From: Schmidtea polychroa
Lineage: Eukaryota
DNA: 64,000 nt
Reading direction: 5' to 3'
NCBI GenBank assembly: GCA_044892525.1
Contig: CM097885.1
Coordinates: 9,240,001-9,304,000 of the forward strand
The notes beneath the pieces were generated by a model that had not been told where the DNA came from, ran no database searches, and was given only the letters and a program-made list of their open reading frames with translations. Positions 1,500 to 35,296 of the stretch are shown piece by piece; position 1 is the stretch's first letter, and every line of letters begins with the position of its first letter. The translations under genes were made by a program, and so were the position numbers.

Positions 1500-2250
1500 C
1501 TAAGTTCTAAAAAGTTCTAAATGTCATTTTATTAAATTTAGACGCGAAGACCATGTGCTGTACCCCTTGTGTCCATATTTTCAATAAGATAACATAGAAC
1601 TTCAATTACCGATATACATTCATCAAACTTATTTTTCACTGGCTTAACAGCAGCATAATGAGCACCAACATCCCAATGTATTCAATCAAAACATCCCATC
1701 GATGAGTGGAAGCAGCAAAAAATGAAAATATTCCTTCAAAAGTACCAAAAGTTGTAACATGAAGCATTTTCGGCCAAAGACTGTTGGCCACAAAAATTCA
1801 GTAAATGGTCCACGAACCCATTAAAAATTGCTTTCTTATTATTTATTTTCAGAATGGCCTTAACACCTCCATGGATTCCAGGCATTTTGTAGCATTTTTG
1901 TAGCCTTGAGATCTGCACATCATTATGTCAAGTCTGTCGCGTTTTACATTTGTAAGAATATCAGAAATGAGGTCATCAGTTTCTTTTCCCACTTGAAGGG
2001 AAAAATCCATGGAAGACTTCTTTGACTTCAACTTTCCCATTGTGGATTTTCACATATTCGATAACCTTAAATATTTGCTCAGGGTGTGATATATCATGTG
2101 TGCTGTCGAAATTAATTCCAAAATACCTCGCAGATTTTTATCTTTGACAATAATCTCCTTTACTTGATTTCCTAGGACATGTTGGGTCTTAGGTAGTATA
2201 AGTCGGGAACCTCTGACTCCTCGTGTCCTTTTAATCATAACAATCAACTA
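1500..2250 (-). mobile_element. Degraded hAT (ZMYM1/THAP12-like) transposase remnant
   Basis: Broken frames give LDIMMCRSQGY..NA, M.G.HGGV.A.LK.NNKKA.F....H.LN and FFAASTHRWDVL, matching the CRGQxYDxA/CxxH region of hAT transposases. Boundaries approximate. Confidence 0.6.
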
Positions 2251-10613: not shown

Positions 10614-10704
10614 TCACTCTGTTATCAAAATTTGATTTAAATAATTTTGGAAGATATTTAAAAATATTAATTTGGTTTTAACAAAAATTTTGGAAATTAA
10701 GTTA

Positions 10705-10795
10705 CAAATAAATAAGAAAAAAAATGAAAAATTAACATTAGACGAATTTCAAATCTCAATTTAATCTAAAAACCAATATTTATAAAATGTTTGTT
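10705..10795 (+). repeat. Left copy of the 91-bp direct duplication flanking the Polinton
   Basis: Identical to 25776-25866 (CAAATAAATAAG...AAAATGTTTGTT). Confidence 0.92.
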
Positions 10796-11118
10796 AATCT
10801 ATGCACCCCAGCACCCCCACCCTCAAAAAAAACAGCGCTATTGACCCATATTTTCCACATTTATATGCTTTTTTACCCCATATTCTTCACTTTTTTTAAC
10901 TTTTAAACTTTGTCCCCTATTGCCATTAACCCTTAATTTCTGCCCTTAAAAGTAAAAAAGTTCGGAATAGATGTATTTATAGATTAGTAATTCCGAGAAA
11001 AGGTAACGGGGTGCATAGATTCCTCACTACTTGGTCTTAAGGATTTAATGTTATAAGGATTTAATGTTATAAGAATATCAGATTACCTAATTCATAATGA
11101 TCTAGGTCGCCTGATCAC
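10796..11118 (+). repeat. Left TIR of the Polinton, missing the terminal 10 bp AGTAGTGAGG
   Basis: Reverse complement of 25445-25765 apart from one substitution and a 2-bp indel. Contains a 16-bp tandem repeat (TAAGGATTTAATGTTA x2). Confidence 0.95.
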
Positions 11119-11191
11119 TTTTAGATTTAAAAAAAATAAAAATTAATATCAAAACCAAAACATCGTATCCAACCAAAAGATTCTTTTAAAA

Positions 11192-14100: not shown

Positions 14101-15571
14101 AGAATGCGATCTTGAATATCCCAATGAAATAAAATCCAGGACAAGATTCTTTCCATTTGCTCCAGTAAGAAGAAAGATCTCGACTGAAGAACTTTCAGAC
14201 TGGCAGATGGCTCAGGATAGATCGCCCTGTATAAAACTTTTATGCGATCAGACCGATAAAACTGATTACCTTTGTCATTATAGACTCCTTCAGTTTTATC
14301 TCTCCCATGGAATGGTTTTAAAAAAAGTACATTCCATTATTAAATTTCGACAAGCCCCTTTTATGAAAAAATTCATAGAGGGAAATATTTTGAAAAGAAA
14401 TGCAGCAAAGAGAGCTGGAAATGCATTTCTTGATATGATTTACAAACTCCTGAACAATGCGGTCTTTGGAAAGACCATGGAGAATATAGACAAGTACACA
14501 CGTGTAGAGCTTTTGACCAATACATCCAAAGACCTTAATAGGTACAACCGGATAATTGGAAAGCCCACATTTAAAAATGCCGAGATATTCTCTAGTAACC
14601 TTATAGCCATAGAGATTAAAAACTCTGTAAAAACTTATAATAAACCAATCTTTATAGGGTTTTCAATTTTAGAACTTTCAAAGCTTCAAATGTATGAAGC
14701 CTACTATGATGTTCTAGTACCACATTTTGGAGATCGAATATCCATGCATGCTATGGACACTGATAGTATGTTTTTAAAAGGTCATAGTAAAGATTTAAAA
14801 AAGGAAATAAGTGAAAACGAAACCTTAAATAAATTAATAAACAACTCTGGAGAATTATTTACTTTTAAAGATGAAAAACCAAATACTCCAATAAGTGGAG
14901 GAGTGTTTATTAGACCTAAACAATATTCTCTTGAAATGAAAGACAAACCAATTATGAAAGAGCATACAATAAAATTTATAATAGGGGAGGGAGAAGGATC
15001 TGTTGAAATAGATCACACATTTGAATATCCTTCATTCCCTGAAAACCCGAAAAGCTATAAAGAAAATAAAAGTAAAGGAATTCAAAAATCAGTGTCAAAA
15101 ACCTTCACACATCAAGAGTATAAAGATTCATTAAATATAAATTATAAAAATAAAATTGCTAAAACCCATCATCTTAAATCAGAGAAACATAATATATATC
15201 TTGAAGAGTGTAACAAGATTGCTATAACAAATTATGATGATAAAAGATTTATACTTTCTGACTTGAAGACAACATTACCTATTGGAAATGATTTAATCCC
15301 TATAATAAAAAATCTTGATAAAATAAATGAAATTTATAACCTAGAGATTACAGACCTTCAACTTGCTAAAGTAGAAATCCAATATCCTGAAATATTAATT
15401 CCTAAACCTTTATATAATCAAGTTCAAAATATAAAACCTATAGAACTTAAATATTTTAATACTGATCCTGAATATATCCAAGGACTAACACCAGAAGACT
15501 TTAAATCACATAAATTAATGTTAAAAAGCATTACTGCAGAAATAATTATAAATCAATTACGACTGGTCTAA
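11192..15571 (+). CDS. Protein-primed family B DNA polymerase (pPolB) with N-terminal Zn fingers, terminal-protein region, vOTU-like domain and EndoVII/HNH insertion
   Basis: Exo I YCDFEA, Exo II FHNLFGYD, Pol A DATALY, Pol B KLLNNAVFGK, Pol C DTDS and KxY (RPKQY). OTU-like DNKCF...HY. EndoVII-type CWMC...DHDH...RGAAH..CN. Three N-terminal CxxC..H..H/C fingers. Confidence 0.96.
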   Translation: MEAIFNCEICEKNFKNKTALTSHKKSKDHLIKANTLDDTNSKICTKCKDRYLFSGYKKHFKNCIGVPKNREIFECSACGKTMRIKSFYLRHIEDCGLEAKDSDSNSMTEKAEKLEFNWDDFNHTDVIAEVKRGPRSIMQYIRENKKKIISSMDDAIKKFGRSRFNVIKVKFTGNAKYWRGDDSIAMPLDVKIETSYKYLFSTKAGNKLVNDIAKELEEKQEQVEQELGESNLRFHSFQNIEIEYWRGAPPNPKSFIHTPFTSNHVINVQNKDNKCFQWSILAHLHPQATNPQRVQKYEEYESELIYPKDFSHPMKIEDVPAFEKLNNLKINIYQFIPTKITKTRKNKNYKHIIPIYIFNMEISDEKREVDLLILEEGKPDEDFDGEEYGEEVQSVHPRREAEEGISLEPEAESTASGGTMLDKKLHYILIKNFQSFMKGNTLIRGGICCKRCLYHSSSKLAAIKHERLCCKNQPALIKMPHKKNANMRFKNYSNLLEALGVVYCDFEAINVKLRRTKTNTVKLTKQLPSAYKMFFKSNYPELVESREYSFRGTSDKETLDHFVKTLNNLEHELYIILKSNFPMNFSEEQEEEYKNATHCWMCKQEFEDEEPKVADHDHFKRENNYRGAAHKKCNLNCKKPTHIPFIFHNLFGYDIHLFIKHLAANAKNSFKVIGLTKEKYKSIQYGCFKFLDSLNFLGMSLDGIAKTMNPEDFKYTKEHVLLKNNIPLEEYNTCLAKGIYPYDYIDSFEKYNELLPPQEDFFSVLTQSGISDQEYSRAVKMWNLFNCRNLGEYTDMYLSLDVYILADCFETFSKAFELKPYNYITAPSLAWDILLYTIWTDEDVAVRNKTIELLVELDMFNVYKHNIRGGISSVQGNREINANNFTTLYPKFFKDPDALYVEITNPEDRKEIMEGLSNPSEIMYIDATALYAGVMTQYLPIGKFTWEEPTEELIQEILKTPKDSQFGYVIECDLEYPNEIKSRTRFFPFAPVRRKISTEELSDWQMAQDRSPCIKLLCDQTDKTDYLCHYRLLQFYLSHGMVLKKVHSIIKFRQAPFMKKFIEGNILKRNAAKRAGNAFLDMIYKLLNNAVFGKTMENIDKYTRVELLTNTSKDLNRYNRIIGKPTFKNAEIFSSNLIAIEIKNSVKTYNKPIFIGFSILELSKLQMYEAYYDVLVPHFGDRISMHAMDTDSMFLKGHSKDLKKEISENETLNKLINNSGELFTFKDEKPNTPISGGVFIRPKQYSLEMKDKPIMKEHTIKFIIGEGEGSVEIDHTFEYPSFPENPKSYKENKSKGIQKSVSKTFTHQEYKDSLNINYKNKIAKTHHLKSEKHNIYLEECNKIAITNYDDKRFILSDLKTTLPIGNDLIPIIKNLDKINEIYNLEITDLQLAKVEIQYPEILIPKPLYNQVQNIKPIELKYFNTDPEYIQGLTPEDFKSHKLMLKSITAEIIINQLRLV

Positions 15572-15595
15572 GAATTAGAATTTTAACACTATAAA

Positions 15596-16150
15596 ATGAT
15601 GGAAACTAAAAATCAAGAAAATAACATTTTTGAAATTATAAAAAATATTACTAATTTAAAGGATAACAGATGTAAAGGAATACAGAGAGTGGTTGCAAAG
15701 AATCTTTCTCATCAAGATTATATAGATACATTGAATCCAAATCATAAAGATAAAATTGATGAAATACATCAACTTAAAAGTGAAAACCATGATATTCACT
15801 TGATAGAATCTCAAAAAGTATCATTATCAAATTATGATGATAAGAGATTCATACTAAGTGATTTAAAGACAACTCTACCTATTGGAAATAATTTAATCCC
15901 TATAATAAAAAATCTAGAAAAGTTGAATAAGTTATATGATACAAAGATTACTGATCTTGATATTTATAATGTTGAAATTATTTATCCCGAGAGAGAAATC
16001 GAGAAACCTTTATATTCTCAAGTTTTTAATCCTATATGTTTAGAACTTAAATATTTTAATACTGATCCTGAATATATAAAAGGTCTAAGTGATAAAGAAT
16101 TTAAAGATCATAAATTAATGATTCATAGGTTGGCTTTCAACCATAACTGA
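15596..16150 (+). CDS. Stand-alone paralog of the pPolB C-terminal (thumb plus extension) region
   Basis: Ungapped manual alignment to pPolB from KGIQ to HKLM gives about 95/149 identical residues. Own AAAATG start, 24 bp after the pPolB stop. Confidence 0.88.
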   Translation: MMETKNQENNIFEIIKNITNLKDNRCKGIQRVVAKNLSHQDYIDTLNPNHKDKIDEIHQLKSENHDIHLIESQKVSLSNYDDKRFILSDLKTTLPIGNNLIPIIKNLEKLNKLYDTKITDLDIYNVEIIYPEREIEKPLYSQVFNPICLELKYFNTDPEYIKGLSDKEFKDHKLMIHRLAFNHN

Positions 16151-16244
16151 AACCAACGATATTTAATTTTTTAATAATAAAATGTCGACAATTAATTTAA
16201 GCAACTATAGCAACCTGATCTACTTTTTTAAAAATACACCCATT

Positions 16245-16841
16245 TTATAAGTAAGAATTCTTTAACCATTTTTCTCGAGATGTTTTTTTATTACTTATAA
16301 CATTAGCCACCATGCCCTCCCTTTTTAATCTTATAACCTCATTCTTTATATCTTGTATTATTTGATTTGATTTCATTATTTCTTCGTCTGTCAGGATTCC
16401 ATCTTCCAAAGCTTTTAATTGAAATAAAAATAATTTAGAGATTCCTAATTCTATTGATAAACAAACTTCTCTATATAAACTTTTCTTTTTAGAAGTATAA
16501 GATAATGAAACTATTTCAGTTAAGAAACCATCAGCCACAGAAATACTTCCAAGTATTACAGGTGCAAGAGTAACAACTGGTAAAGTTATGGGTAAAATAA
16601 CTGTTAATATTGCAGATGCAAATCCTAAAGAATAACCTATAACTTTTAAAACTGTATTCCCTTTATTCCATCTATTTTTAATTTTTTTATAATGCTTTAA
16701 TAAATCTTGTAAATGTAAGGTTTCTGATTTAAATTCTTTTACTCTCATAATTTCAAGTTCTGTGGGAGCCGAGGCCTTGGAAGAATAATATCCTGATGAT
16801 CTCAATTCGGGGTAAAATTTTTCTTCTCTTACTTCTTCCAT
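16245..16841 (-). CDS. Two-TM membrane protein, adintovirus GasderminX-like
   Basis: N-terminal FYPEL, a basic helix, a ~45-aa hydrophobic hairpin and a C-terminal ALEDGILTDEE motif. Family assignment is recalled, not searched. Confidence 0.6.
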   Translation of the reverse strand: MEEVREEKFYPELRSSGYYSSKASAPTELEIMRVKEFKSETLHLQDLLKHYKKIKNRWNKGNTVLKVIGYSLGFASAILTVILPITLPVVTLAPVILGSISVADGFLTEIVSLSYTSKKKSLYREVCLSIELGISKLFLFQLKALEDGILTDEEIMKSNQIIQDIKNEVIRLKREGMVANVISNKKTSREKWLKNSYL

Positions 16842-16849
16842 TTTAATAA

Positions 16850-17860
16850 TTAAAAAAATAAGACTTTATTCTTCTGAGCACCATCTGGCACCAATACTCG
16901 GATATCAAAAGAAACTCTTGTTGAGAGGATATCTTTATACAATTCTCTCAATGCTTTACGAACTTCATCAACATCAACCTTTTTTTCATAAAATATTAAA
17001 TCTATATATTGTACAAGTGAACTAGAAAAATGAATATTCTTACTTTTAACTTTATGTAGTCCATGTGAATGAGTATTAACATACCAATCTCCGTGTGGTA
17101 AATCATAACTAGTCATTATAACATCACCCTTTTCAAGCTTACTATTATAATCACATTTCACAAACCATTTCATTCTTTCATTATCATCATCAAACAAAAA
17201 GAAATAAGGATCAATAATTTTTACAACCATAAAAACACCCCATTCTTTACTGTTTGTTGTTATTAAACTTGGTTCTATAAAATGTTTATATGTATGGGGT
17301 AATAATGTTTTATTCTGTTCTAATTCAGCAGCTCTTTTTCTAATACTATGTGTGGTGTTAATGTGTGTTCCACGAGACTCTAAATTTGAAATTCTTTTAT
17401 TAAATGATGTAATCATCTCATTTATTATATTATATATTGCATTAAATTTAGTATTCATAATTTGTTTATCTTTAGAATTTAATATAGCAGTATTTAACTT
17501 TACAACTTGTTCAGTTAACAGACTTTGTAACTTGTCAAATTTATCATTAAATCGTTGTTCGATATTATTAAGCTTTGATTCCATTGAATCAATTTTTGTT
17601 GTTAATGAACTTTCAATTCTTGTTGTTGTTAAATCAGTATATTTTTTAACACCATCTACATATTTCTTATTAACTGCATCAGCTTCATCAGTTGGAAAAG
17701 ATAATTCTTTTATCTTGTGTCCATTTAAAATTAAATCACCCTTCATTGAATCACCTCTTTCATTAATATATTTATTTTCTGTTAAAGTTAATATTTCTTC
17801 TGTATTAAACCCTGTTTTTATTGTTCCACCACCTCTATTACATGGAATATAAGAACTCAT
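16850..17860 (-). CDS. Putative virion fiber/spike protein
   Basis: GDSMKGDLILNGHKIKELSFPTDEADAVNKKYVD tail-fiber-type repeat, then a long coiled coil and a beta-rich C-terminal domain. Lies next to the penton gene. Confidence 0.6.
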   Translation of the reverse strand: MSSYIPCNRGGGTIKTGFNTEEILTLTENKYINERGDSMKGDLILNGHKIKELSFPTDEADAVNKKYVDGVKKYTDLTTTRIESSLTTKIDSMESKLNNIEQRFNDKFDKLQSLLTEQVVKLNTAILNSKDKQIMNTKFNAIYNIINEMITSFNKRISNLESRGTHINTTHSIRKRAAELEQNKTLLPHTYKHFIEPSLITTNSKEWGVFMVVKIIDPYFFLFDDDNERMKWFVKCDYNSKLEKGDVIMTSYDLPHGDWYVNTHSHGLHKVKSKNIHFSSSLVQYIDLIFYEKKVDVDEVRKALRELYKDILSTRVSFDIRVLVPDGAQKNKVLFF

Positions 17861-17886
17861 TTATTAATAATTTAAAATGGACTTCG

Positions 17887-18651
17887 TTAAACCTGTTTCA
17901 AATGTAAATACATTGAAATCTCTTCTCCATTAAAATCAATCAATTCTCCTTCTTGATTAAGAATTTTAAAATTAATATCCATTATATATTTTCTACATAA
18001 AGGTAAATAATTTGGAGGATTCATTCTTTCAACTATTTTATATCCCATAGGAACTGTGTTTGAGGGAAAGGAATATAAAACATTTGTTTGTTTACCATTA
18101 TTATAAGAACCTGTTATACAATCGCAATGAATATTTATTGTGTTTGTATTTATTATTTTTATAATATGTTCTGATGTTATTATTTTATCTTCTTTTATTG
18201 TTATATCCATAGGTTTAAATCCTAAAACTGTGTGAAAGAAACAATTATCTAAAAAACTAATTTTTATATTCTTCAAAGTCATTACACATTTTGAAGTTGG
18301 TATATCCATTTTAATTTTAATACCTTCATTTGTTTTTTTAGAAAGTATATCATTTAAATCTTTTATCTCATATGCCCCAGGTTCTATTGTTATAATTTCT
18401 GGTTTATGCCCATCACGAGTTTGAATAGTAAATTTATTATTATCTTTAGTTATATTAAAAATAGTATTATAAGCACAAAACCATAATAGCCCCAATTCAT
18501 AATTTAAATTTTGATCTAATTTAATTGAATCTTGAAAGTTTATAGTAAACTCTGATTCTTTTGAATTTATAGATAAAGTTCTTGAATATTTATCTGACAT
18601 TATGTTTACCATTTTTTTAAAATTATCTTCCGGAGGGTTGTGAAGCTCCAT
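17887..18651 (-). CDS. Minor capsid protein (penton, single jelly-roll)
   Basis: Polinton penton-type C-terminus IHCD.I.GSY.NG....LYSF...GYKI.E..P.YLP...NQ.G.LIDFNGE.I...LHLK; 254 aa. Confidence 0.85.
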   Translation of the reverse strand: MELHNPPEDNFKKMVNIMSDKYSRTLSINSKESEFTINFQDSIKLDQNLNYELGLLWFCAYNTIFNITKDNNKFTIQTRDGHKPEIITIEPGAYEIKDLNDILSKKTNEGIKIKMDIPTSKCVMTLKNIKISFLDNCFFHTVLGFKPMDITIKEDKIITSEHIIKIINTNTINIHCDCITGSYNNGKQTNVLYSFPSNTVPMGYKIVERMNPPNYLPLCRKYIMDINFKILNQEGELIDFNGEEISMYLHLKQV

Positions 18652-18699
18652 TTCTTTAGTAGTAAATTCATATAGTAAAAATCCTTATAGTAAAAATCC

Positions 18700-19152
18700 T
18701 TATAGTAGAGATTCTAGATCATTATAAATTTCTTGAATTATAGATTCAAAATCCTGCGTATGCCCCATATTCAATCTATACAAAACATATAAACTTAAAA
18801 TACCACATATTTTAGTATTCAAAGGTTGAACTTGTAAAGAGTTAAAAGTATAACCATTTGGGGAATCAATCGGAGAACCCCTCAAGAGATAATCTTCAAC
18901 TTCTTTAGTAGGTTTAATCCCAAAAGAATCAAAGTAGATAGATTTCTTATATATACAAACCCAATGAGATCCTTTTTCATTTGAATTTTGATAATTGATT
19001 ATTATATTCAGGGGACTCTCCAGACTTGATAATTCATCATTCATTAATATTTTAATTTTTAAATTTAAATAATTTGCATAATCTTTTAAATCAAAATTTG
19101 TTTTTGCATTTATTCCAAATGTTTTTAAAAAATCTAATATTGAAGGAGTCAT
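18700..19152 (-). CDS. Adenain-like (Ulp1-fold) maturation cysteine protease
   Basis: GSHWV, YFDSFG and Q......CG give an intact His-Asp-Cys triad plus the oxyanion Gln. Confidence 0.92.
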   Translation of the reverse strand: MTPSILDFLKTFGINAKTNFDLKDYANYLNLKIKILMNDELSSLESPLNIIINYQNSNEKGSHWVCIYKKSIYFDSFGIKPTKEVEDYLLRGSPIDSPNGYTFNSLQVQPLNTKICGILSLYVLYRLNMGHTQDFESIIQEIYNDLESLL

Positions 19153-19204
19153 TTTGTATTTTAAAACTTCGTATTTTAAAACTACGTATTTTATAACTTC
19201 GTAT

Positions 19205-20074
19205 TTATAACTTCGTATACTTATTAAATTTATCTTTTGAAATTATTCCTTGTTTTAACAAATCTTTAGAAATCTTTAAAATATCAGAATCTAAATTATT
19301 ATGTCCTGCTTTCCTTGCAGCTAATAGTTTTCTTAATTCAATAAAAAGATTGATGGGATTTCCTTCACTAATTAATCCCTCTCCCTCTGTAACAACATAA
19401 CCCTTTTCATTTTTATCTAAATAATTCTTTAAATCTTGAATATATTTTGCTTTAGAACCAGCTCTTATTAATCTTATTAAATTTAAATATTTTTTAATTT
19501 CTTCAAGATCATCTGAAGAATATCCACAAAGTAATTTATAAAAATCATCTGTAAATTCAAAGTCTAAATATTCATTATTATAAACATTTTGTGAATGAAT
19601 ACGTGATTTATTTTCTGAATTTGAATATAAAGTAAAGTTTTGTTTATTAATTGTTATTATTTGATATCCTTCAGTATTAGTATTAAATGTGGGTCTAATT
19701 GAAGGAGGTAAATCATCTCTAATTTTAGGATCAACTTTAAGAGGTTTTGTTTTTAAAAACATTTCTTCTTCTTCTTCCGCATTAGAAATTCTTCTGCGTT
19801 TTCTTTGATTTCTTTCAGGATGGTTTTCACTGGATTCTTCCTTCCACTCTAGTTTTTTTATTTTTTGTTCATGGGGACTTCCTCCATCTTCTAACTCTTT
19901 AAATTTTGCTTGCTCATTTAATCCTTTTATAGCTTTAATTGTTGGCCCCTGTTGTTGTGTTATTACCTCATTTAATATTATAGATTCAGCATGTTGACTT
20001 GTATCTTTTTTATTATATTTATCTTGTTCTGATTGTAATTTTTTTAAAAGTGCTAATCTTTCTTCATATACCAT
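19205..20074 (-). CDS. Conserved Polinton protein of unknown function
   Basis: C-terminal L..LLAA.KAGHN....I..I...L...GII motif typical of a Polinton core ORF. Also an NLS-like RKRRR and a GEG motif. Confidence 0.65.
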   Translation of the reverse strand: MVYEERLALLKKLQSEQDKYNKKDTSQHAESIILNEVITQQQGPTIKAIKGLNEQAKFKELEDGGSPHEQKIKKLEWKEESSENHPERNQRKRRRISNAEEEEEMFLKTKPLKVDPKIRDDLPPSIRPTFNTNTEGYQIITINKQNFTLYSNSENKSRIHSQNVYNNEYLDFEFTDDFYKLLCGYSSDDLEEIKKYLNLIRLIRAGSKAKYIQDLKNYLDKNEKGYVVTEGEGLISEGNPINLFIELRKLLAARKAGHNNLDSDILKISKDLLKQGIISKDKFNKYTKL

Positions 20075-20096
20075 TTTTATGGTATTAAAAATGGTA

Positions 20097-20690
20097 TCAT
20101 TTTGGTAAAGGATCCGTTGGAAAGGGCTTCAAGTATAAACCTTTGCCATTTTTAGTTTTACAAAGACATCCATTCTTTAAAGATTTACATATTTTTTTTA
20201 AATCTTCTTTATCTTTTAAAGATAAAGATTCAGATGTAGAAATTTGATTTTTTAAAAAATCATTTAAACCTCTACCTTTATAAGGATCAAGATAGAGACC
20301 TTTGCCCTGAGACTTTTGCCGACTCCCCTCATATGGATTAAGATAGAGACCCTTTCCAACGGACACTCCCCCTTTAGCTTGCCCTACCTTCTTCATTGAA
20401 TCGATTTCAGTTTGTAGTTTTTCTTTTTCTAGGTCTGTCTTTTGAGATTCTTTAGCTTTTTGAACTGTAGTTGCAATTCCTCCAGCTATTCCAGCAGCAC
20501 CTGATAAACCTGCAATGATTGCAGGTATTAAAGCAGCTAATGGAAGAATGCCACCTTCTTTAGCTTCGTGGAGCTTCGCTCTAACTTGTTCTTTTACATG
20601 TTTTCCAATAAAATATTTTTTACCATCAATTACTACTGATTTATTTTTATTTGAATTTATTAATTCTTGCAAAGATTCTTCAGTTGTCAT
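20097..20690 (-). CDS. Adenovirus protein-X (mu precursor)-like core/membrane-active protein, 197 aa
   Basis: GGILPLAALIPAIIAGLSGAAGIAGG resembles adenovirus pX GGILPLLIPLIAAAIGAVPGIA. Three GKGLYLxP repeats. Start placed at the AAAATG at 20690, not the ORF-track start inside the ATPase. Confidence 0.72.
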   Translation of the reverse strand: MTTEESLQELINSNKNKSVVIDGKKYFIGKHVKEQVRAKLHEAKEGGILPLAALIPAIIAGLSGAAGIAGGIATTVQKAKESQKTDLEKEKLQTEIDSMKKVGQAKGGVSVGKGLYLNPYEGSRQKSQGKGLYLDPYKGRGLNDFLKNQISTSESLSLKDKEDLKKICKSLKNGCLCKTKNGKGLYLKPFPTDPLPK

Positions 20691-20706
20691 TTTATAATAA
20701 ATAAAA

Positions 20707-21498
20707 ATGGATACTTGGAAACCAATTTTAAATAGACATAAGAGTAAATTCAATAATAAAGTATTTCCTGATAATTTTAGATTATTAATTGTTGGTTCTT
20801 CTGGATGTGGAAAGAATGTACTTGTTTTGAGAATGTTACTTGAAGATGATTTTTTAGATTATAATAATTTAATCTTTTATTCTACAACCATAAATCAACC
20901 AGAATTACAACTTTTGAAATGTGGATTTGAAAATAAATTAACTAAAAAAGCAATAATTGATATTTTTAAAAATCAACATAGGTGTCCTGAAGAAGTTTTT
21001 CAACCTTGTGATATGGTTGATTGGTATAAGGAAAAGATTTTAGAATCAGATATTAGTAATAAAAATGATTATATTTGTGAAGAAGGGCAGGAGGCAATTC
21101 AAGTTTTATTCTCTAATAAACCTGAAGATGTTTTACATTGTGATTTACTTCTTAAAGATAAAAAGAATCTAGTTATATTTGATGATGTTGTTAATATGAA
21201 AAATCAAGAGATTCAAAAGAGTTACTTTACACGAGGTCGACATAATAATTGTAATGTTATTTATATATCTCAAACATATTATGCTTTAGATAAAAATTCA
21301 ATAAGAAATAATTCCAATTGTTTTATATTTTTTAAATTAGATCGCCGTGATAAGAATATGATTTATAATGATTTATTTTCAAATGTTGAACCTGATAAGA
21401 ATATGTTTGATATGTTTGTTGATAATCATTGGAAAGAAAAATATAATTATATTTATTTGGATAGAGAAGAAGCTGAAATATGGAAAAGTTTGTTTTAG
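20707..21498 (+). CDS. A32/FtsK-like genome-packaging ATPase
   Basis: Walker A GSSGCGKN, Walker B LVIFDD, arginine-finger/sensor RGRHNN..ISQ, and IRNN. Confidence 0.93.
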   Translation: MDTWKPILNRHKSKFNNKVFPDNFRLLIVGSSGCGKNVLVLRMLLEDDFLDYNNLIFYSTTINQPELQLLKCGFENKLTKKAIIDIFKNQHRCPEEVFQPCDMVDWYKEKILESDISNKNDYICEEGQEAIQVLFSNKPEDVLHCDLLLKDKKNLVIFDDVVNMKNQEIQKSYFTRGRHNNCNVIYISQTYYALDKNSIRNNSNCFIFFKLDRRDKNMIYNDLFSNVEPDKNMFDMFVDNHWKEKYNYIYLDREEAEIWKSLF

Positions 21499-21509
21499 GG
21501 CTTGTCGAC

Positions 21510-22919
21510 TTAAAAATCTGTTTTCTGTAGTTCATTATTATAAAATCTACCTAATATTTTTTCATTATTTAAATCAAAGATGCTATATGTTATTGGAGTT
21601 GTATAATTTATTTTATTTATAATAAAAATTTCATTTGTCCATTTTGCTGTGAATCCTTTTTCAAATTTATTTTTATATTTAAATATTCTTACTCGGTCAC
21701 CAATTTTAAACTTTGGTTTTTCAATAACATCATTTTCAATATTTACCACTTTAATGGTTTCAGGCTTCATGGAAGCATTTAAAGGTGTTAATTTTATAGA
21801 ACTATGTACATCATTATTATATTCATTTACAATCTTTTGTAACAATTCATTGTTCCATTTTTGTTTTCCAATAGCAGTAAAATATTTCCACATTTTATTT
21901 TTTAATGTTCTATTTAATCTTTCAACTACGACTGCTTTTCCTTCGTTTTCTGTTGAATATAATTTAATATCATTTTCATTTAAAAACTTTGTAAAAACTT
22001 TGTTATAAAATTCTGTTCCTTTATCACACCATAAATATTTTGGGATTCTTTGATTTTCTTCAAATATATTTTCAAATGCTTCTGTAATAGAATATCCTGT
22101 TTTATTTTCTAAACATCTTGCAAAAGCAAATCTTGTATATAAATCTATTACAGTTAAAATTATTTTATATTTTTCAGGGTCTGATGATTTGGGCATAAAG
22201 ACTAAATCTGCAGACCATGTTTGATCTTTTTCATGTACTTGAACTTTTAAATATTTTTTATTTTTTCTAAATTCATGGTGTAATTCCTTTGCATATTTTA
22301 TTTCTGATTCTGTTGGGGTTTGTAAACTAGTCTTGGATATATTCTCGAGGGATCTTTCAGCGTCTGCTTGTTCGATAATCTTTTTATAAGCAACATCTTT
22401 CGCTTTCCTAGGAAGTCTTGCACCCATGGTGATCGGACTGTGTCCTAAGCCTATGAAAATCTTACCTTTCATTGCTAATTTAACTAGAGCTCTTTGAATC
22501 TTTTCTTGGGTTGATGGATTTTGGATACTATTTAAATCATGTATTAAATTCACATCTGCAACATGTCTATCTCTAAGATTTGTTGAATTGTATGCAATGT
22601 CATGTTTTAAAGCTGCTTGATCAATTCTATTTATTGGTTCTTCTCCTTGTTTGGGATTATTATTTTCATCTAATCTAATATCTAATCTTGTTCCTGGTCC
22701 AGTATAGTTGTGTTTAAATAAATGTCTTTCACCTGGATATTTTTCTGTAGTAAAAGGTTTTAATATTGAAGATGTTGTTTTTGAAGATTGCAAATCGCCT
22801 CCAGCTCGTGGAATTAGGTCACCTACTGTATGTTTTTTAGTTTTAAGATGGCTTGCTTTATGATGTCTTGTAACTTGACAATTACAAGTTTCACATCTCC
22901 AATATTTATTTAAAGACAT
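21510..22919 (-). CDS. Retroviral-type (rve) integrase fused to an N-terminal Zn finger and a parvovirus-type phospholipase A2 domain
   Basis: DDE triad WSADL / CDKGTEF / VERLNRTLK and an SH3-like C-terminus (KFKIGDRVRI...ELQK). Upstream CxxC..H..H finger and YTGPG...DQAALKHDIAY...RHVAD. Confidence 0.92.
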   Translation of the reverse strand: MSLNKYWRCETCNCQVTRHHKASHLKTKKHTVGDLIPRAGGDLQSSKTTSSILKPFTTEKYPGERHLFKHNYTGPGTRLDIRLDENNNPKQGEEPINRIDQAALKHDIAYNSTNLRDRHVADVNLIHDLNSIQNPSTQEKIQRALVKLAMKGKIFIGLGHSPITMGARLPRKAKDVAYKKIIEQADAERSLENISKTSLQTPTESEIKYAKELHHEFRKNKKYLKVQVHEKDQTWSADLVFMPKSSDPEKYKIILTVIDLYTRFAFARCLENKTGYSITEAFENIFEENQRIPKYLWCDKGTEFYNKVFTKFLNENDIKLYSTENEGKAVVVERLNRTLKNKMWKYFTAIGKQKWNNELLQKIVNEYNNDVHSSIKLTPLNASMKPETIKVVNIENDVIEKPKFKIGDRVRIFKYKNKFEKGFTAKWTNEIFIINKINYTTPITYSIFDLNNEKILGRFYNNELQKTDF

Positions 22920-22948
22920 TTTAAAATGTTAAAATATCAGGGATTATA

Positions 22949-24241
22949 TCAAGAATCTCCCCTAACATTTTCGATTATTGAAATCTTTCCACCATATAAT
23001 TTCATTTCTATTTTCTTTTCTTCTAATATTAATGTATATACTTTAGCTTTAAAATTAGAATCCTTTGTTACATGGAGTGTAACATCAACATTATTTATGG
23101 CTAGGCGATCATCTTGGTCTGAAACATTTATACAAAATATAGAATATAAATTTTTGAAATCTTCTAAACTTAATTGCGGTTCAACTTTGAAATCATAACA
23201 TGTTTCAATATAATTTAGATATGGGAATATGTTTTCATTATTTTCAATATTAAATTCCATTCTATTTATTGGATAATAAGAACTATTTAATTGAATTTGG
23301 ATTGTTTTTAAATTATCAACTCCAATCTTTTGAATAAACAAGTTGTTATTTTTTTGGAAAGATGAATCTACTTCTTTGAATCCAATCAAGATATATCTTG
23401 GTCGGTATACTAAATTTGCTACCTTTATAGAATATGTTGAACCCTCTGTCATACTAAATTCACTACAGATTCTATTTAAATAATTTACATTTATAGACTT
23501 GTTGGAATTTAATCTTTCAAGGAGTTTAATCTCAGAATGTGGGTTTAATGTCCATTCAGGTATATGTAATTCAAGTGTTGATAATTTTAATTTAGCTTTT
23601 GTATCTACAGCTCCATAGAACAATCTTTTATCACCTTCTACTCTATTACAGATGAATTCTATAAAAACATTATGAAGTATACGATTATAGTTTTGAAGGA
23701 ATCCAAACAAGTGTTTTAATTCAAAATAACCTTCAAATTTTTTAGATTTATAAAGTTCAGCTCTTTTATGGTAACCATGGTTTACATCTAAACCATCTTT
23801 ATCTAAATCCCCTTTATTAACATCAGGAATCCAACCTGTTAATTCACCATATTCGTTTTTATAATCACAACCAGTCAAAATAAAATTTAACATTGTAGAA
23901 TATACTCCCGGATGTAAAACAGTTTCAATTTCTGATGATCCTAGTTTTAATCTCATGTTGGAGAATAAATTTGGAAAGAAATTATTTTCTAGGGTTATAT
24001 CTTTGTTTGCTTCAATTTCTAATTCGATTTTATAATATAATTTGGCATTACAAATATCTATAGGGTTTGATGTTTGAAGAGATTGAAAAACTATATCACC
24101 CCTACGATTTAAGTTTGCAATAGATCCTGAAGTTGGGGAGATTTTAAGTACATCGTTTTTCTTGATTTCATGAGTAAATTCTTTATTATAATCAAGATTT
24201 AATTTATTTTTTTCTTGAATTTTAAGATTTATATTATTCAT
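22949..24241 (-). CDS. Major capsid protein (double jelly-roll)
   Basis: 430 aa, beta-rich, with PRYILIGF, IQLNSSYYP and LYSIFCINVS segments typical of Polinton MCP. Expected size and context. Confidence 0.88.
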   Translation of the reverse strand: MNNINLKIQEKNKLNLDYNKEFTHEIKKNDVLKISPTSGSIANLNRRGDIVFQSLQTSNPIDICNAKLYYKIELEIEANKDITLENNFFPNLFSNMRLKLGSSEIETVLHPGVYSTMLNFILTGCDYKNEYGELTGWIPDVNKGDLDKDGLDVNHGYHKRAELYKSKKFEGYFELKHLFGFLQNYNRILHNVFIEFICNRVEGDKRLFYGAVDTKAKLKLSTLELHIPEWTLNPHSEIKLLERLNSNKSINVNYLNRICSEFSMTEGSTYSIKVANLVYRPRYILIGFKEVDSSFQKNNNLFIQKIGVDNLKTIQIQLNSSYYPINRMEFNIENNENIFPYLNYIETCYDFKVEPQLSLEDFKNLYSIFCINVSDQDDRLAINNVDVTLHVTKDSNFKAKVYTLILEEKKIEMKLYGGKISIIENVRGDS

Positions 24242-24297
24242 TTTTATATATTAAAATTTACACACACACAATAGGATTAATTAAATATATTATGTAA

Positions 24298-24370
24298 GCC
24301 ATTATAGCGGAGTGGGAATAGGCTTCAATTTTATCACCGGGAGTACCGGGTTCAATTTTCGATTTTGGTC
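24298..24370 (+). ncRNA. tRNA-like Pol III unit 1
   Basis: A box TAGCGGAGTGG (24305) and B-box-like GGTTCAATTTT (24349) at tRNA spacing; partial acceptor stem GCCA/TGGT; T9 run at ~24385. Anticodon arm does not pair. Confidence 0.6.
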
Positions 24371-24532
24371 AATTTCTTTCGATATTTTTTTTTCAACGGA
24401 ATCTGATTCAGCGTACTGATTTTAGTATATATTTAAATTTTCAGATGGATCTGAGTGGTAGTTGTCGAGAAAATGAATAATTAATTATTAATTTCATCAA
24501 TAAATAGTCACACATTAAAAACTTATTTCATA

Positions 24533-24605
24533 TTGAGTATAGCTTAGTGGTAATAGCACTCGACTGCATTGCCAATACCAATGGGTTCAAATCCCATTTC
24601 GGTCA
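24533..24605 (+). ncRNA. tRNA-like Pol III unit 2, derived from tRNA-Cys(GCA)
   Basis: GTATAGCTTAGTGGTAATAGCACTCGACTGCA closely follows the eukaryotic tRNA-Cys 5' half. Perfect T arm ATGGG-TTCAAAT-CCCAT and a T8 terminator immediately after. Anticodon stem broken. Confidence 0.75.
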
Positions 24606-24772
24606 TTTTTTTTCAAATTTTTTTTTTAAACAAAATATTGATCAGCATACTCGATTTAGTACTTGTACAAATTTTAAAGGTGATTGGTCAACGGCAACTC
24701 TTGGAAATTTAAGATCAAAAACGTTTTAACTTGAATCGATTATTTATAGTCTAAAAAATGACAAAAATTCAA

Positions 24773-24844
24773 ACCTTGATGGCGCAGTGGGCTAGACCGG
24801 CACAGTGGTTCAAATAGATAGCGGTTCAAATCCTAACTGTGGTT
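24773..24844 (+). ncRNA. tRNA-like Pol III unit 3
   Basis: A box TGGCGCAGTGG (24780), B box GGTTCAAATCC (24823) and a second GGTTCAAAT at 24807. ACC/GGT terminal pairing and a T8 terminator at 24847. Confidence 0.68.
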
Positions 24845-25014
24845 AGTTTTTTTTCAACATAAAAATAATATTAAAAATTTAAAAATAATAGTGTGGGTAT
24901 CTTATATTTATAAAGTACTTGTATATTTTATTTTATTTATTTTATTTTATTTTATTTTTTTAATTATTTTAGTTATTTTTTAAACATAAATATGAAAAAA
25001 AAATATTGAAACGG

Positions 25015-25087
25015 GTGATGGTGGCGAACCGGTAATTATCGCCACCTGTCTTTCGAACACCCCCGGATCGATTCTATAATGTGCACA
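25015..25087 (+). ncRNA. Possible tRNA-like Pol III unit 4
   Basis: A-box-like TGGCGAACCGG (25022), D stem GCGA/TCGC, TGT-CTTTCGA-ACA loop and B-box-like GGATCGATTC (25065). Falls on the ~240-bp period. Confidence 0.4.
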
Positions 25088-25444
25088 TTTATTTCTTGGT
25101 TGTTTTCGGACCTCTTTCGGATTCGCTTTCGAATTCATTTGTACTTTCGAGCAGCACGCTTAAAACGCCGTTGAAATCGACTTCGTGAGCGAGAAGCGAA
25201 TAATAAGGCGTGCTGCTATTATCGGATTGATTCTGATGTATGAGTCTGGCCAGCTTGTATATTGGAAGAGATTTGATAAACGAAAGAGGTTGATAAATAA
25301 AAAAAAAATGATCCGGATCAAAAAAAACTGTTGAGGGGACAGTGAAAAAAAAAAAAAAAAAAAAAAAAAAATACCACTGTCCCCTCAGAGCAGTTTTACT
25401 ATTTTCATAAAATTTTTTATTTTTAAAACTTTCAAAACCTTAAG

Positions 25445-25775
25445 GTGATCAGGCGACCTAGATCATTATGAATTAGGTAATCTGATATTCTTATAACATT
25501 AAATCCTTATAACATTAAATCCTTAAGACCAAGTAGTGAGGAATCTATGCACCCCGTTACCTTTTCTCGGAATTATTAATCTATAAATACATCTATTCCG
25601 AACTTTTTTACTTTTAAGGGCAGAAATTAAGGGTTAATGGCAATAGGGGACAAAGTTTAAAAGTTAAAAAAAGTGAAGAATATGGGGTAAAAAAGCATAT
25701 AAATGTGGAAAATATGGGTCAATAGCGCTGTTTTTTTAGGGTGGGGGTGCTGGGGTGCATAGATTCCTCACTACT
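25445..25775 (-). repeat. Right TIR of the Polinton (331 bp, complete)
   Basis: Ends GGGGTGCATAGATTCCTCACTACT; inverted copy of 10796-11118. Confidence 0.95.
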
Positions 25776-25866
25776 CAAATAAATAAGAAAAAAAATGAAA
25801 AATTAACATTAGACGAATTTCAAATCTCAATTTAATCTAAAAACCAATATTTATAAAATGTTTGTT
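25776..25866 (+). repeat. Right copy of the 91-bp flanking direct duplication
   Basis: Identical to 10705-10795 and directly abuts the CTACT terminus. Confidence 0.92.
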
Positions 25867-26398
25867 TATCTACGTCAATAAACAAATTTTCAATATTGAA
25901 ATTTCAAAAGTAAGAGGAAATAATTATTTTTAATTATAATTTATGAATTTTGAAAAACTTTGAAATATTTTAATAATTTCATAATGAAATATTTAATTGT
26001 TTTATTGTCATAATTATTGATTTGAACTTATTCAAATCTGACAAAATATTTGGATTTTTAACATTAACACAGATATTTATTTTATTTTAATTTTGATTTT
26101 CTATTTTAAAATGTTTAAATTTCCATCAAAATTTTACTTTTTGTTATCAAATTTGAATTTAAATAATTTTGTAAGATTTAAAATAATTAAAAAAAATGAA
26201 AATTAACATTAATAAAATTTCGAATTACGCTCAGCTAAAATACAATATTTATAAATTGTTTGTTTATCTACATTAAAATACAAATTATAAATATTGAAAT
26301 TGGAAACGTCAGAGGAAATAATTAATATAATAAGTATGATTTATGATTTATGTTGTAAATGTTGAAATATTTTGATAATTTTGTTAATTTTAGATAAA

Positions 26399-31300: not shown

Positions 31301-32545
31301 GTTTTTTTTAGAACAAAATTTTTAATTTCCTTTATTAAACTTACAAATCCTTACAGATCCATTAGCACATCTAATACTGTTTGATGAGATTTTTTTTAAA
31401 TTTTTGTATCGTTGAGGTGAGTCACCAATTATATGACAAAGTTAACTTAATTTCATTTATTCTATTTTTCAAAAATCGTTTTAAAGTAAGTTTTTGAATT
31501 AAAGTAATTTTTAGGACTTGAATTTTGATTTTATATAATTATGAGATCATTATTCAAGTTCTTAAATATTACTGTTAGTCATCATTTATAATATAACACA
31601 TTGATAATTAAATTTCAGGTGTTTTTTAGGAATTTTATGATATTTTATTTGGATTTATTTCGTAAAAATGTAAGTTAGATATTTTTATAATTATAAATAA
31701 GTAAAGTCATCACCAAACATTTATTTTTTTAAGACATCTAGGAAAGAATGGATAAAATAGTTTTTTAAGTTTTTGTAATCTTCTTTCGAATTTTGTCTTT
31801 TTCTGTAATTCTATGAAAATATTAATTTGTTAAAATAATTTATTAAAATTTACGATTTGCGATTTTTTTCCTGCAAATTCAAAGATGTCGAAGGACCTTC
31901 TTCAATATCTGTAAATCTAAAGAAATTTTATATTCTAAATTATTTTATAATTAAATCTTACGATGTATTTTCTTCTTTTTCCCTAAAGCTCAAGGTAGAG
32001 CAGTCAGAATCTGATTCAAAAGTTTTTTTGTACATAACTTTTTAAATAATTTGAAAATATTAATATGTTAATCAATGTTAATTTCGCAAAAAAAAACACT
32101 TTATTAATTTTGTATGTATTTTTCATTATGTGTGCTGTGCTTGTATGCTTAATTATTTTCTCTCACTTTTTAGATTCCTATAATAAATATGTTAAATTTC
32201 GCAGCATTAAATTTTTACACACAGGTAAGTTTGTGTTCCTATAATATATATTTATTGATTTTTTTTTAGATTATAGGCTATGTTATATTTCGCAAACGGG
32301 TGTAGCAAGGTAACTTATGACATTAGGTTGTGCAACATCAAACAGAACGTCACAAATGAGAACGGCATGACGAAAGCTGACCACAAAAGGGGTTCACAAA
32401 TCATGTAACTATGGGTAAATGCTTATAATAAATGTATATAGTTAATTATCCAATAAATGCCAGTTACCATGGTGATTAGAATTTATAGCCAGAAATACAA
32501 AATAATCAATTTATTATTAAACAACAAAATAAAAACAAGAATGAT

Positions 32546-35296
32546 TTATTTGTGGGTGGGAAACATGACCTTGGTTTCTATGACAACCCCACCGGCACTT
32601 GAGTGGGATTTTGACATTTGTGGCTTCGATTGTCCTGTGTCCCATTTCGTCTTGCGCATTCTCATTTCGGAATCAATAACTAAAGATTTGATCGTTAAAT
32701 AATCAATAGATAATCAATAATTATTCCACTTTTCGTTGTGGCGGTTTTGTTGGGTTTCGTTGCGGTGCCGCTTGAGAGTTGATCCAATCGCTTCCGCTCC
32801 GCCGCATCTTGGGCCTTGGCGAGCACCTCGTAATAGGATTCCTCTCCGAATCGATATGGATCATAAAGTTCCTAATTATTGATTAATTAAAAATTTTTTA
32901 AAAATTAATTGAAAAAAAATTCAAATTAATAATTAATTAAATAATTTTAATAATTTATAAAAAATTACTTAGTAATTAAATATTAATAAAAAAATATTTA
33001 ATTAAATTATTTATTAATTAATAATAAAAAATTAATAATCACAATTAATTAATAAAAAATTAATTAATAATTAATAATTTGTTAATTAAAAATATTTATT
33101 AAAAAATAATTAAAATTAATTTTAATAAATAATAAATTAAATATTAAATTAGTTAAAATATTTAATTAAATAATATAATTAAGAAACAAAAAAAAATCTA
33201 ATTAATCTAATAAAATTTATTTATAATTCTAAATTAATTATTAATAAATAATAAAAAATCAATAATCAATAATCACAATTAATTTATTAATTAAGAAATT
33301 ATATTAAAAAATAATTAGAATTAAATAAAGTATTTTTAACTAATAATTAATTTATAAAAAAAATAAAAAATTAGTTGGAAATTAAATATTAATAAAAACT
33401 CAATTAGAATTAATTTTTAAAAATAATAATTTATATTATAAAATGCAAATTAGTTATTAATTAAAATATTTAATAAAATGATTTAATTTATCAAAAATAA
33501 ATAATTAATAAATAAAAAAATTAAATTTAATAAATAATTTATTTATAAAAGAAATTTAAATTAATTATTAATAAAAAATAATCAAAAATAAATAATCACA
33601 ATCAAATTTATAAAAATTAAAAATTAATATTTAGTAAATATTTATAATAAAATTAATAAAATAATAAAACTAAATAAAATAAAATAAATTTATTAATTAA
33701 AAATATTTATTAAAAAATAATTTAAATTATTATTTATACAAATTACAAATTAATTAAAATATTTAATTATTAATTAATAAATAAAAATAAATAATCACAA
33801 TTAATTAATAAAAACAAATTAATGATTAAAATAATATTTATTAAATATTTATAATAAAAAAGTCAATTATTAAAATAAATAATTAATAAAAAATTCAAAT
33901 CTAATAAATAATTTATTAATAAAAGTAATCTAAATTAATCATTAATTAATATATAATAAATATTTATAATAAAGTCAATAATTAAAATAATAAAATTAAA
34001 ATGAAAAATAAATATTCACAATTAATTATATAATTATATAAATAATAATAAACAAAAAATTAGTTGGTTATTAAATATTAATAAAAATTCAATAAAAATT
34101 AATTTTAATAAATAATATATTCAAAAATAAATAATAAAGAAAAAAATAAAATCTAAGAAATAATCAGAATTAATTAATAATTTATTTATAAAAGAAATTT
34201 AAATTAATTATTAATAAAAAATAATCAAAAATAAATAATCATAAATTAATTAATAAAAAATAGAAATTAATTATTAAATTAATTTTTAGTAAATATTTAT
34301 AACAAAAAGTCAATTAAAAATTATTCTAATAAATAATTAATAATTTAAACGAACCGGTGGATAATTTGTTCCCCTCTCATCGATTTTCATGTGCTCGATT
34401 AATTTCTCATAAATGCTCGGGTTGCGATACTCTTTATTGTTCAAAATCAATTGTGCAATGTTGCAACGGGAATTCTTGGCCTTTGCACGTAAGTCGGCAA
34501 TTTTTTGCTCGAGATCAGCTGGAGGTTTGCCTGGTGGAGGAGGAGGTAATTTTATTTCTGATTGGTTGAATATCTGACGGGACAGTAAATATGGTAATTC
34601 GCTGCCTTTCGGGCGCTTTGTCATTACGATTGCTTTGACTTGGGAAGATGATTGGCCACTTCGACTTTTCAGGTCAACATCTCGAGGTGGACGGTCATGA
34701 GTATCTTCGTTTTCAATATCGGATTCACGACCTTCTACGTTAAAGCATTCATCATTGTCAACAGGAATCGATTCTTGAATATCTAAAGTTGAAATAATTT
34801 ATCTTAAATGATTGATCAGTTCTTACCATCTTTTTTTGCCGAAGATTCTTTTTCATTCGTAAACGTCAAATAATTCTCACTGTCATTCTCATCATCATCG
34901 TCCTCATCAAAATACTCATCCTCGTCCATTCCATATGAAACAAGACCACCAATATTACCTGTCAAACTAATTACAATTCAATTTAAAAAAACAGTCTAAC
35001 TATCATTAGTTTTTCTTCTTTTTAAAGGAATAACTTCGGAATTTATTTCTTTTGGTGAATGGTCATTAGAGCAATTTGATTTCGTATCATTTGTTATTGG
35101 ACTAATATCCATTGCTTAAAAGAATATTTATTTCTTTTACATATTTTAAATACTTACATCGCATTTCATTAGATTGATCATTTGAATTTTCGCGTGGAGG
35201 CAAGGGTATATTGCTTAAACTATCTAATTCTTCATCTGATATATCCGAACCATAAGTAACTAACGAATGTTTACTAGAATCTTTAGGTGACTGCAT
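32546..35296 (-). CDS. SAP30BP: SAP30-binding protein (HCNGP family), multi-exon
   Basis: N-terminal SLVTYGSD and acidic region. LPPPPPG...KEYRNPSIYEKLI...IDERGTNYPP splices to ELYDPYRFGEESYYEVLAKAQ; last exon has RKTKWD; stop at 32546. Confidence 0.88.

Follow-up and report, generated by a model that had tools for sequence, protein, structure and literature searches.

The right end of a Polinton/Maverick provirus in the genome of Schmidtea polychroa carries three short, apparently tRNA-derived units, in which the promoter boxes and terminators of RNA polymerase III (Pol III) genes are kept and the tRNA cloverleaf is lost, followed by an element of about 390 nt that folds as a plus-strand RNA. 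The provirus lies in a stretch of 64,000 nt (GenBank assembly GCA_044892525.1, contig CM097885.1, positions 9,240,001 to 9,304,000 of the forward strand; hereafter the window, whose numbering is used throughout). A first-pass annotation of this DNA had pointed out a gene-free stretch of about 1.2 kb between the start of the major capsid protein (MCP) gene and the right terminal inverted repeat (TIR), and indeed there is no open reading frame (ORF) of at least 100 aa in 24242-25416. tRNA-derived Pol III genes appear to be the best-supported reading of the anatomy of this region. We favour the view that these Pol III-type units and the terminal structured RNA form a non-coding module maintained by selection, to which we would give a probability of about 0.45.

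Three short units with promoter boxes and terminators

Units 1, 2 and 3 lie on the plus strand at 24298-24371, 24533-24606 and 24773-24846; they are 73-74 nt long and start 235 and 240 bp apart. The A-box consensus TRGCNNAGTGG has three exact matches on the two strands of the 64 kb, and all three fall at position 8 of a unit (24305, 24540 and 24780), where 0.21 matches were expected and none of 100 shuffles gave three. A B box follows at unit position 51-52 in each (24349 in unit 1), unit 3 having two GGTTCAAAT motifs, at 24807 and 24823. The boxes are placed at tRNA positions, as first proposed, and the pattern of a B box followed by GGTYA and T6 occurs twice, against 0.03 expected. Type 2 Pol III promoters have an A box at about +8 to +19 and a B box at about +52 to +62, 30-60 nt apart; units 1-3 show this placement together with a T run downstream.

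Runs of T9, T8 and T8 begin 80, 66 and 67 nt after the A boxes of units 1, 2 and 3, and just 21 runs of at least eight T are present on the plus strand across the 64 kb. Unit 2 is followed by a double terminator-like run (T8, CAAA, T10; 24606-24627), and unit 3, which ends in GGTTAG, by T8 at 24847-24854. In the window copy of unit 1, 13 nt separate the end of the unit (GGTCA) from T9 (24385-24393); in most other copies T7 stands immediately after GGTCAA. For unit 1 of this copy the first description, GGT(C/T)A followed by T8-9 in all three units, does not hold as given. The anatomy of units 1-3 is real and not due to chance.

The region had also been described as a regular array of four units with related spacers. 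The three units stand at the spacing given; the fourth, starting at 25015, is the head of a longer module described below. Nor is the array uniform. Units 1 and 2 are 62.8% identical, against a shuffle mean of 48.6%, and spacers 1 and 2 63.3% identical, against 54.1 ± 2.0 in shuffles, so that these units and spacers are paralogous and make up one duplicated block. Spacer 3 is unrelated to spacer 2 (53.5% versus 55.0 in shuffles), and unit 3 belongs to the terminal repeat of sister subfamilies.

Descent from tRNA and loss of the cloverleaf

Unit 2, the most tRNA-like of the three, aligns end to end with the Rfam tRNA model (RF00005) at 26.7 bits (E=0.0063), under the cut-off of 29, and a sister variant of it present in 4 of 16 loci scanned scores 32.4 bits, above that cut-off. 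Units 1 and 3 and the putative unit 4 were not listed by Rfam at E<=10, and no match was obtained in the window at the gathering score. ARAGORN, which called all sampled host tRNAs, called no tRNA gene in the window or in 20 sister loci. In the Rfam alignment the acceptor and anticodon stems of unit 2 carry non-standard pairs and only the T arm is intact, GCA standing at the anticodon position; the folds of units 1 and 3 are no more stable than those of shuffled sequences (z=0.14 and 1.06). None of the units in the window has the score or call, or the four paired stems, of a functional tRNA gene. These results support a derivation of the units from tRNA genes; judged by their sequence, units 1-3 are not working tRNAs and cannot decode.

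Variation among copies

We compared unit 3 and the DNA downstream, up to the hairpin of the long module described below, in 46 distinct sequences from 49 segments, counting columns in which variants were shared by at least two sequences. One of 11 columns is variable in each of the A box, the first GGTTCAAAT B-like motif and the B box, and none of the eight in the T run. Variable columns are more frequent in the 5' acceptor part (6/11), the 3' acceptor part (4/12), the segment between the two GGTTCAAAT motifs (3/5) and the interbox (3/16), as well as upstream of unit 3 (15/33) and in spacer 3 (32/137). When pooled, the boxes and T run (3/41) vary significantly less than the rest of unit 3 (16/44; Fisher p=0.0015) and than upstream and spacer sequence (47/170; p=0.004). 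The initial claim that boxes and terminators are kept while anticodon arms are broken is borne out both by these counts across copies and by the broken stems in alignment and folds. The pattern is that which would be expected if promoter and terminator matter and the fold of the RNA does not.

This bears on an early suggestion that units 1-3 give rise to trans-acting, non-decoding tRNA-like small RNAs, serving as decoys for RNA interference or double-stranded RNA sensors in the manner of the adenoviral virus-associated (VA) RNAs or the tRNA-microRNA-encoded RNAs (TMERs) of murine gammaherpesvirus 68. Promoter and terminator anatomy would suit such RNAs; so would a 70 nt contig guessed to be RNA inside unit 1 (24311-24380, depth 5.6) and the neighbouring long module, whose tRNA-like head and stable hairpins resemble the TMER layout. 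However, an RNA that acts through its fold should keep it, whereas unit 3 varies freely in both of its acceptor segments, 5' and 3', and units 1 and 3 fold like shuffles. No compensating change was seen between the two acceptor halves when the variant list was read by eye, untallied, which speaks against a structure-dependent small RNA. We consider the decoy role quite unlikely for the short RNAs.

A longer folded module

The supposed unit 4 is not a fourth small gene, but part of a longer, RNA-like folded module of about 390 nt on the plus strand (25004-25398), which is different from units 1-3 and arguably more interesting. Its head has an A-like box with two mismatches (25022-25032) and, 43 nt downstream, a B-like box (25065-25075), with no run of at least five T for 391 nt; the first such run downstream of the head is T6 at 25413-25418, on the inner edge of the TIR. 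The head is followed by a body, by an A10 run (25299-25308) preceded by AATAAA (25294-25308), and by the second strand of a closing stem (25063-25069 / 25310-25316). Two hairpins lie within, at 25146-25220 and 25219-25279, and a perfect stem with an A27 loop stands just inside the TIR (25324-25397; z=-10.3).

The consensus fold of 24 distinct copies has 102 pairs and -113.6 kcal/mol, with 99.5% of cells paired versus 41-46% when partners are slid, and the alifold energy is -87 kcal/mol on the plus versus -60 on the minus strand. The strand dependence is clearest in the G-U-rich hairpin of 25 pairs at 25219-25279, which folds on the plus strand only (-23.8 kcal/mol, z=-4.86, versus -2.1, z=+1.39, on the minus strand), and in which six of six one-sided changes among copies keep pairing through G-U. 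Similarly, the column pair 25158/25209 is G-C in 30 copies, G-U in seven, A-U in seven and A-C in none, and the A27-loop stem has one compensated pair (columns 357/406; G-C 14, A-U 10). Over the whole module, 15 cells are changed on both sides, against 5.7 ± 2.3 in shuffles, none of 500 of which reached 15. As a separate candidate, a leader of the capsid mRNA on the minus strand at 25219-25279 was considered and rejected: that strand is unfolded, and the G-U intermediates would be C-A mismatches on it.

Copies, subfamilies and the origin of the units

The units belong to a very large family. A search of the 781 Mb host genome for the 1,171 bp region yielded 2,680 candidates, of which all 40 that were scored are 98-100% identical. 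Two capsid searches, with the relatives P0002 and P0004 as queries, gave 3,213 and 4,944 candidates, including many copies with an open capsid frame, and recovered this Polinton family only. Across the whole genome the core of unit 2 has 2,997 matches, that of unit 3 1,985 and that of the body of the long module 2,840, with no control match in any case. By rough arithmetic, a family of about 3,000 copies of about 15 kb each amounts to several percent of the genome.

Subfamilies differ at their ends. The window type has units 1, 2 and 3 and the long module, others have unit 3 alone, in one copy or two, and the number of units per copy varies from 0 to 4. In a run that looks like DNA (X7), joints skip units, for example from 24245 to 24752. 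Matches to the body are often paired on opposite strands, 13.6-14 kb apart, and in all four sister elements of which both ends were fetched the TIRs are about 0.9 kb long (90.6-98.1% identity), so that each end carries an outward-pointing copy of unit 3, spacer 3 and the long module with its hairpin. Some types contain, between units 2 and 3, an ORF of 89 aa on the strand of the array that stops within the A box of unit 3; its product is charged and helix-like, it is open in diverged variants, and it matches no Pfam family. It was found on the minus strand of locus L031 (1187-1453) and at the same place in L032, L033, L037, L041, L043, L044, L046, L047, L050, L078, L080, L083 and L085. In the window copy a 3' remnant is left (24727-24798, plus strand), about the last 45 nt of the ORF being kept in this type.

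With its tRNA-like head, its body and its A-rich run, the unit 4 region superficially resembles a tRNA-derived short interspersed element (SINE), in which a tRNA-like head with A and B boxes is joined to an unrelated body and an A-rich run, and a host SINE family could have inserted by chance into this Polinton. Among 37 exact unit 3 cores listed from the first 19.2 Mb of contig 1, however, 28 are followed on the same strand, at a distance of 324-1165 nt, by an exact match to the body; six of the other nine were fetched, five having the module with a variant body and one being truncated. Hence 33 of the 34 unit 3 cores examined, and 35 of 40 listed unit 2 cores, which have a body match, lie in a Polinton end module, as the first-pass annotation, which took the units not to be a dispersed SINE, had expected. 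No copy of the units was found in the window beyond the element, core counts (about 2,000-3,000) match and do not exceed the number of capsid candidates, and the A run lies inside the closing stem and not at an end. A tRNA-derived SINE is marked by many dispersed copies outside other elements, each with a flanking duplication of its own; no such spread was seen, nearly all the unit 2 and 3 cores of these samples being placed at Polinton ends, and we regard this explanation as extremely improbable.

A more serious alternative is that the units are neutral relics, a piece of a host tRNA array or a duplicated tRNA gene once captured, now decaying and hitch-hiking in a recent expansion that has left too little time for change. 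Tandem host arrays are a plausible source. Host tRNA-Lys(UUU) and tRNA-Arg(UCG) genes are arranged head to tail in long arrays, at intervals of 424 and 278 bp, similar to that of the units, and the regular spacing would be explained if part of such an array had been captured or if a like tandem duplication had occurred. The host genes score 62-74 bits and each is followed by T6-7, so that the T runs of the Polinton units suit the terminator habit of the host. (The arrays lie near 76.66 Mb on contig 4 and on contigs 140, 333 and 474 (L086-L088), and some of their units are damaged.) Neutral decay would also account for the 98-100% identity of copies, the broken cloverleaf stems, the changing number of units and the failure to see units in relatives outside this genome. 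It sits poorly with three observations. Variable columns cluster where the stems used to be and spare the boxes and T run; both TIRs of sister elements still carry unit 3, which like the module is 87-97% identical to that of the window copy, although the 5' region of their polymerase gene reaches only 75-76%; and the two sampled Lys and Arg arrays have no similarity to the Polinton ends beyond short AT-rich words. No host tRNA with a GCA anticodon was present among the genes fetched and typed, which were all Lys or Arg. On balance we hold neutral relics to be a somewhat unlikely explanation.

Relatives outside this genome were sought in metagenomes and in IMG/VR. IMG/VR contained neither a relative of the capsid protein nor an exact match for the core of unit 3 or that of the body. 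As an observation of its own, a metagenome contig whose capsid gene is 50% identical has a mir-754-like hairpin in a gene-free gap (L053:3810-3889, minus strand; Rfam mir-754 48.6 bits, local E=9e-9, cut-off 84). The mir-754 model found no match among 61 candidates scored in this genome, which is uninformative.

Contigs that may derive from RNA

Contigs were available from three runs guessed to be RNA (X1-X3, from two studies) and from the DNA-like run X7. Those of X1-X3 match the capsid gene and, with the clearest coverage, 24995-25295, where for example contigs of 203 nt (24995-25189) and 106 nt (25019-25124) lie. Word depth is highest at 25024-25299 (up to 8,113 in X1 and 19,808 in X2, versus about 224 for X1 in the capsid gene); since parts cannot be ranked by the depth of contigs, we take these values as a lead only. 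Parts of units 1-3 are uncovered or at low depth, which says nothing either way, and assembled contigs give no strand, ends, level or polymerase.

The same contigs enter into another alternative, that the region belongs to a Pol II transcript, either the 3' part of an mRNA for the small ORF or an outward non-coding RNA, with the units marking points of processing or punctuation and the A-rich runs accounting for capture in poly(A) libraries. The 89 aa ORF of sister types, ending in the unit 3 A box, would fit this, as would the AATAAA before the A10 run, the contigs that reach upstream of 25004 and past T6, and a 379 nt contig guessed to be RNA that joins spacer 2 to 254 nt off the window, which may represent the small ORF of a variant. 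Yet the acceptor stems are poor substrates for recognition by RNase P or Z, the T8-10 runs right after each unit are left unaccounted for, and the window subfamily, which lacks the ORF, still keeps all units. A Pol II transcript therefore seems very unlikely to us as the explanation of the units.

The element and its genes

The window holds one complete Polinton, at 10797-25775 by TIRs and gene content. The TIRs are 331 nt long and 95% identical (10816-11146 / 25417-25747), with similarity reaching further outward to 10797 and 25775. The MCP gene (22949-24241, minus strand; double jelly roll, Pfam PF21738, DJR-like, E=6e-26), whose start faces the unit array, is accompanied by a protein-primed B-family polymerase of 1,459 aa (PF03175, E=1.6e-14), an A32-type ATPase (PF04665, E=5.5e-8) and an rve integrase (PF00665, E=8.1e-12). 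The original assignment to the Polintons is confirmed by this combination of genes and TIRs, which is that of Polinton/Maverick elements. We found 41 relatives of the capsid protein, with P0001 at 97% and P0002 and P0003 at 73-74% identity. Pfam gave no significant match for the protease candidate, the penton candidate or the small ORF.

The window copy is flanked by a direct repeat (10705-10801 / 25776-25872; 99% identical; 97 nt as listed, of which 92 nt are outside the element) and has no 6 bp duplication. Its left terminus is about 10 nt shorter than its right one, the missing letters being AGTAGTGAGG. Of four other copies fetched at both ends, two have clean 6 bp target-site duplications (CATAAT, GACACA), and in these two the termini are AGTAGTG...CACTACT. 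The insertion lies in host DNA that is itself a diverged repeat, spaced at about 398 bp and 83-86% identical (25837-25926 / 26235-26324; 10620-10665 / 26142-26187). Elsewhere in the window, 32001-34000 has 17% G+C and numerous short AT-rich inverted repeats.

Two features of the coding part deserve mention. Upstream of its rve core, the integrase ORF (21510-22919, minus strand) encodes a phospholipase A2-like domain (PF08398, E=3.8e-9), an unusual pairing, and the last ~300 nt of the polymerase gene (15059-15358) recur 600 nt downstream (15659-15958) at 72% identity, giving rise to a separate ORF of 184 aa (15596-16150) similar to the polymerase C-terminus.

A model of the terminal module

The non-coding module that we favour would have two parts. 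The first would consist of the three short tRNA-derived units, of the internal-promoter type, in which the cloverleaf has been lost and the A box, B box and T-run terminator kept; the second would be the ~390 nt element folding as a plus-strand RNA, with its weaker pair of A- and B-box-like motifs at the head. Units 1 and 2 are one duplicated block inserted beside the capsid gene, and unit 3 with the long element belongs to the terminal repeat of sister subfamilies. Host TFIIIC, TFIIIB and Pol III would assemble on the boxes, and short RNAs would stop at the T runs. Selection on the short units would keep promoter and stop signals and not an RNA fold, which favours a role for Pol III occupancy or transcription itself, for example as a chromatin boundary at the ends of the element; for the long module, a role of the folded RNA is favoured. 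Transcription by Pol III, like any function of the units, is what we infer here from the observed anatomy, distribution among copies, variation pattern and strand-specific fold.

A further step would be that Pol III units at the ends shield the element from silencing and have been part of its success at about 3,000 copies, and that the ~390 nt RNA, with a tRNA-like promoter at its head and G-U-rich hairpins throughout, is a virus-made regulatory RNA or small-RNA precursor, a Polinton counterpart of VA RNAs and TMERs. We think this extension unlikely as it stands.

Several results weigh against the favoured reading. The copies are young and related (98-100% identity in the top 40), so that few independent lineages underlie the variation test; the long module is moreover as invariant as the boxes, with 12 of 184 columns variable. 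Covariation in the module is thin, as the two pairs changed on both sides were reached by 234 of 500 shuffles. The array is absent from two of 20 MCP-anchored copies (L034 and L049). None of 27 metagenome loci with related capsid genes (25-52% identity) shows the units, by Rfam (on 13 of the 27), ARAGORN, blastn, nhmmer and box-pattern scans of loci that are mostly short and of which few reach the element end. Finally, 24250-25420 was found in no run recorded as RNA, the RNA status of X1-X3 being guessed; one of their contigs starts at or before 24995, upstream of the start that an internal promoter would give the long RNA, and others continue past T6 at 25413 into the TIR, which fits Pol II transcription or DNA equally well.

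Comparison with known systems

Pol III-type tRNA genes are already known from relatives of the Polintons. In 8,300 genomes of polinton-like viruses (PLVs) and virophages, 558 tRNA hits are reported (PMC12220804), and some midsize linear dsDNA viruses are marked as having predicted tRNA genes (PMC8502044). The units described here are like these in being tRNA-derived and of Pol III type, in a Polinton genome. The PLV and virophage genes, however, are called as real tRNA genes and discussed as codon helpers, whereas the units of this Polinton are not called by ARAGORN and have broken stems. Unlike the PLV genes, too, they are clustered at intervals near one end of an integrase-bearing Polinton of animal type, beside a long folded element.

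The first-pass annotation had been aware of no earlier description. For animal Polintons we likewise found no tRNA-like or Pol III units described, in a comparison that leaves aside Tables S11 and S12 of PMC12220804 (non-coding RNA hits per PLV), where similar cases are possible; for their relatives, real tRNA genes are in print in that paper. A term search of a survey of vertebrate Mavericks and of one of nematode Polintons gave no occurrence of tRNA, 'non-coding', 'noncoding' or 'small RNA'. On these sources, what appears new is the presence of spaced, decayed tRNA-like units and a folded RNA element at the end of an animal Polinton.

Two viral systems invite comparison. The TMERs of murine gammaherpesvirus 68 are encoded at one end of the genome and have non-aminoacylated tRNA-like heads with A and B boxes, downstream hairpins and T-run stops. 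The layout of the unit 4 head with the hairpins 25146-25220 and 25219-25279 is shared with them. TMERs, however, are transcribed by Pol III, cut by RNase Z and matured into small RNAs, whereas the layout here is a predicted one; units 1-3 lack a hairpin of this kind, and the sequences are unrelated. Adenoviruses belong to the same wider lineage as the Polintons, with a double-jelly-roll capsid and a protein-primed polymerase, and their VA RNAs are abundant Pol III transcripts of about 160 nt from internal promoters in the middle of the genome, with a terminal stem, an apical stem and a central domain. RNAs from this Polinton would be about 75-90 nt and about 390 nt long, unlike the ~160 nt of VA RNAs, and a search of 24000-25600 with Rfam gave no VA match at E<=10 and no family except tRNA at E<0.5.

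Among cellular systems, tRNA genes and TFIIIC sites act as chromatin boundaries or insulators in yeast and mammals, and the known insulators of this kind are working host tRNA genes. Unit 3 is comparable in that it stands at both ends of sister elements, pointing outward, and that the part kept is that of the protein-binding boxes; it differs in lying in the terminal repeat of a mobile element, where a boundary role is putative. With host tRNA arrays the units share regular head-to-tail spacing of a few hundred bp and T-run stops, but they reach at most 32 bits versus 62-74, and no spacer similarity is shared with the two arrays. From tRNA-derived SINEs they differ in that the sampled copies show no dispersal away from Polinton ends.

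Adenoviruses and many other eukaryotic DNA viruses are believed to descend from Polintons or to be their cousins, and to our knowledge almost nothing is known of the non-coding functions of Polintons or of how they escape silencing by the host. Dead tRNAs that keep Pol III boxes and terminators, together with a folded RNA in the TIRs, would be concrete and testable candidates for such functions, in an organism where this Polinton is extremely abundant. They also suggest that viral tRNA-like genes need not be codon helpers.

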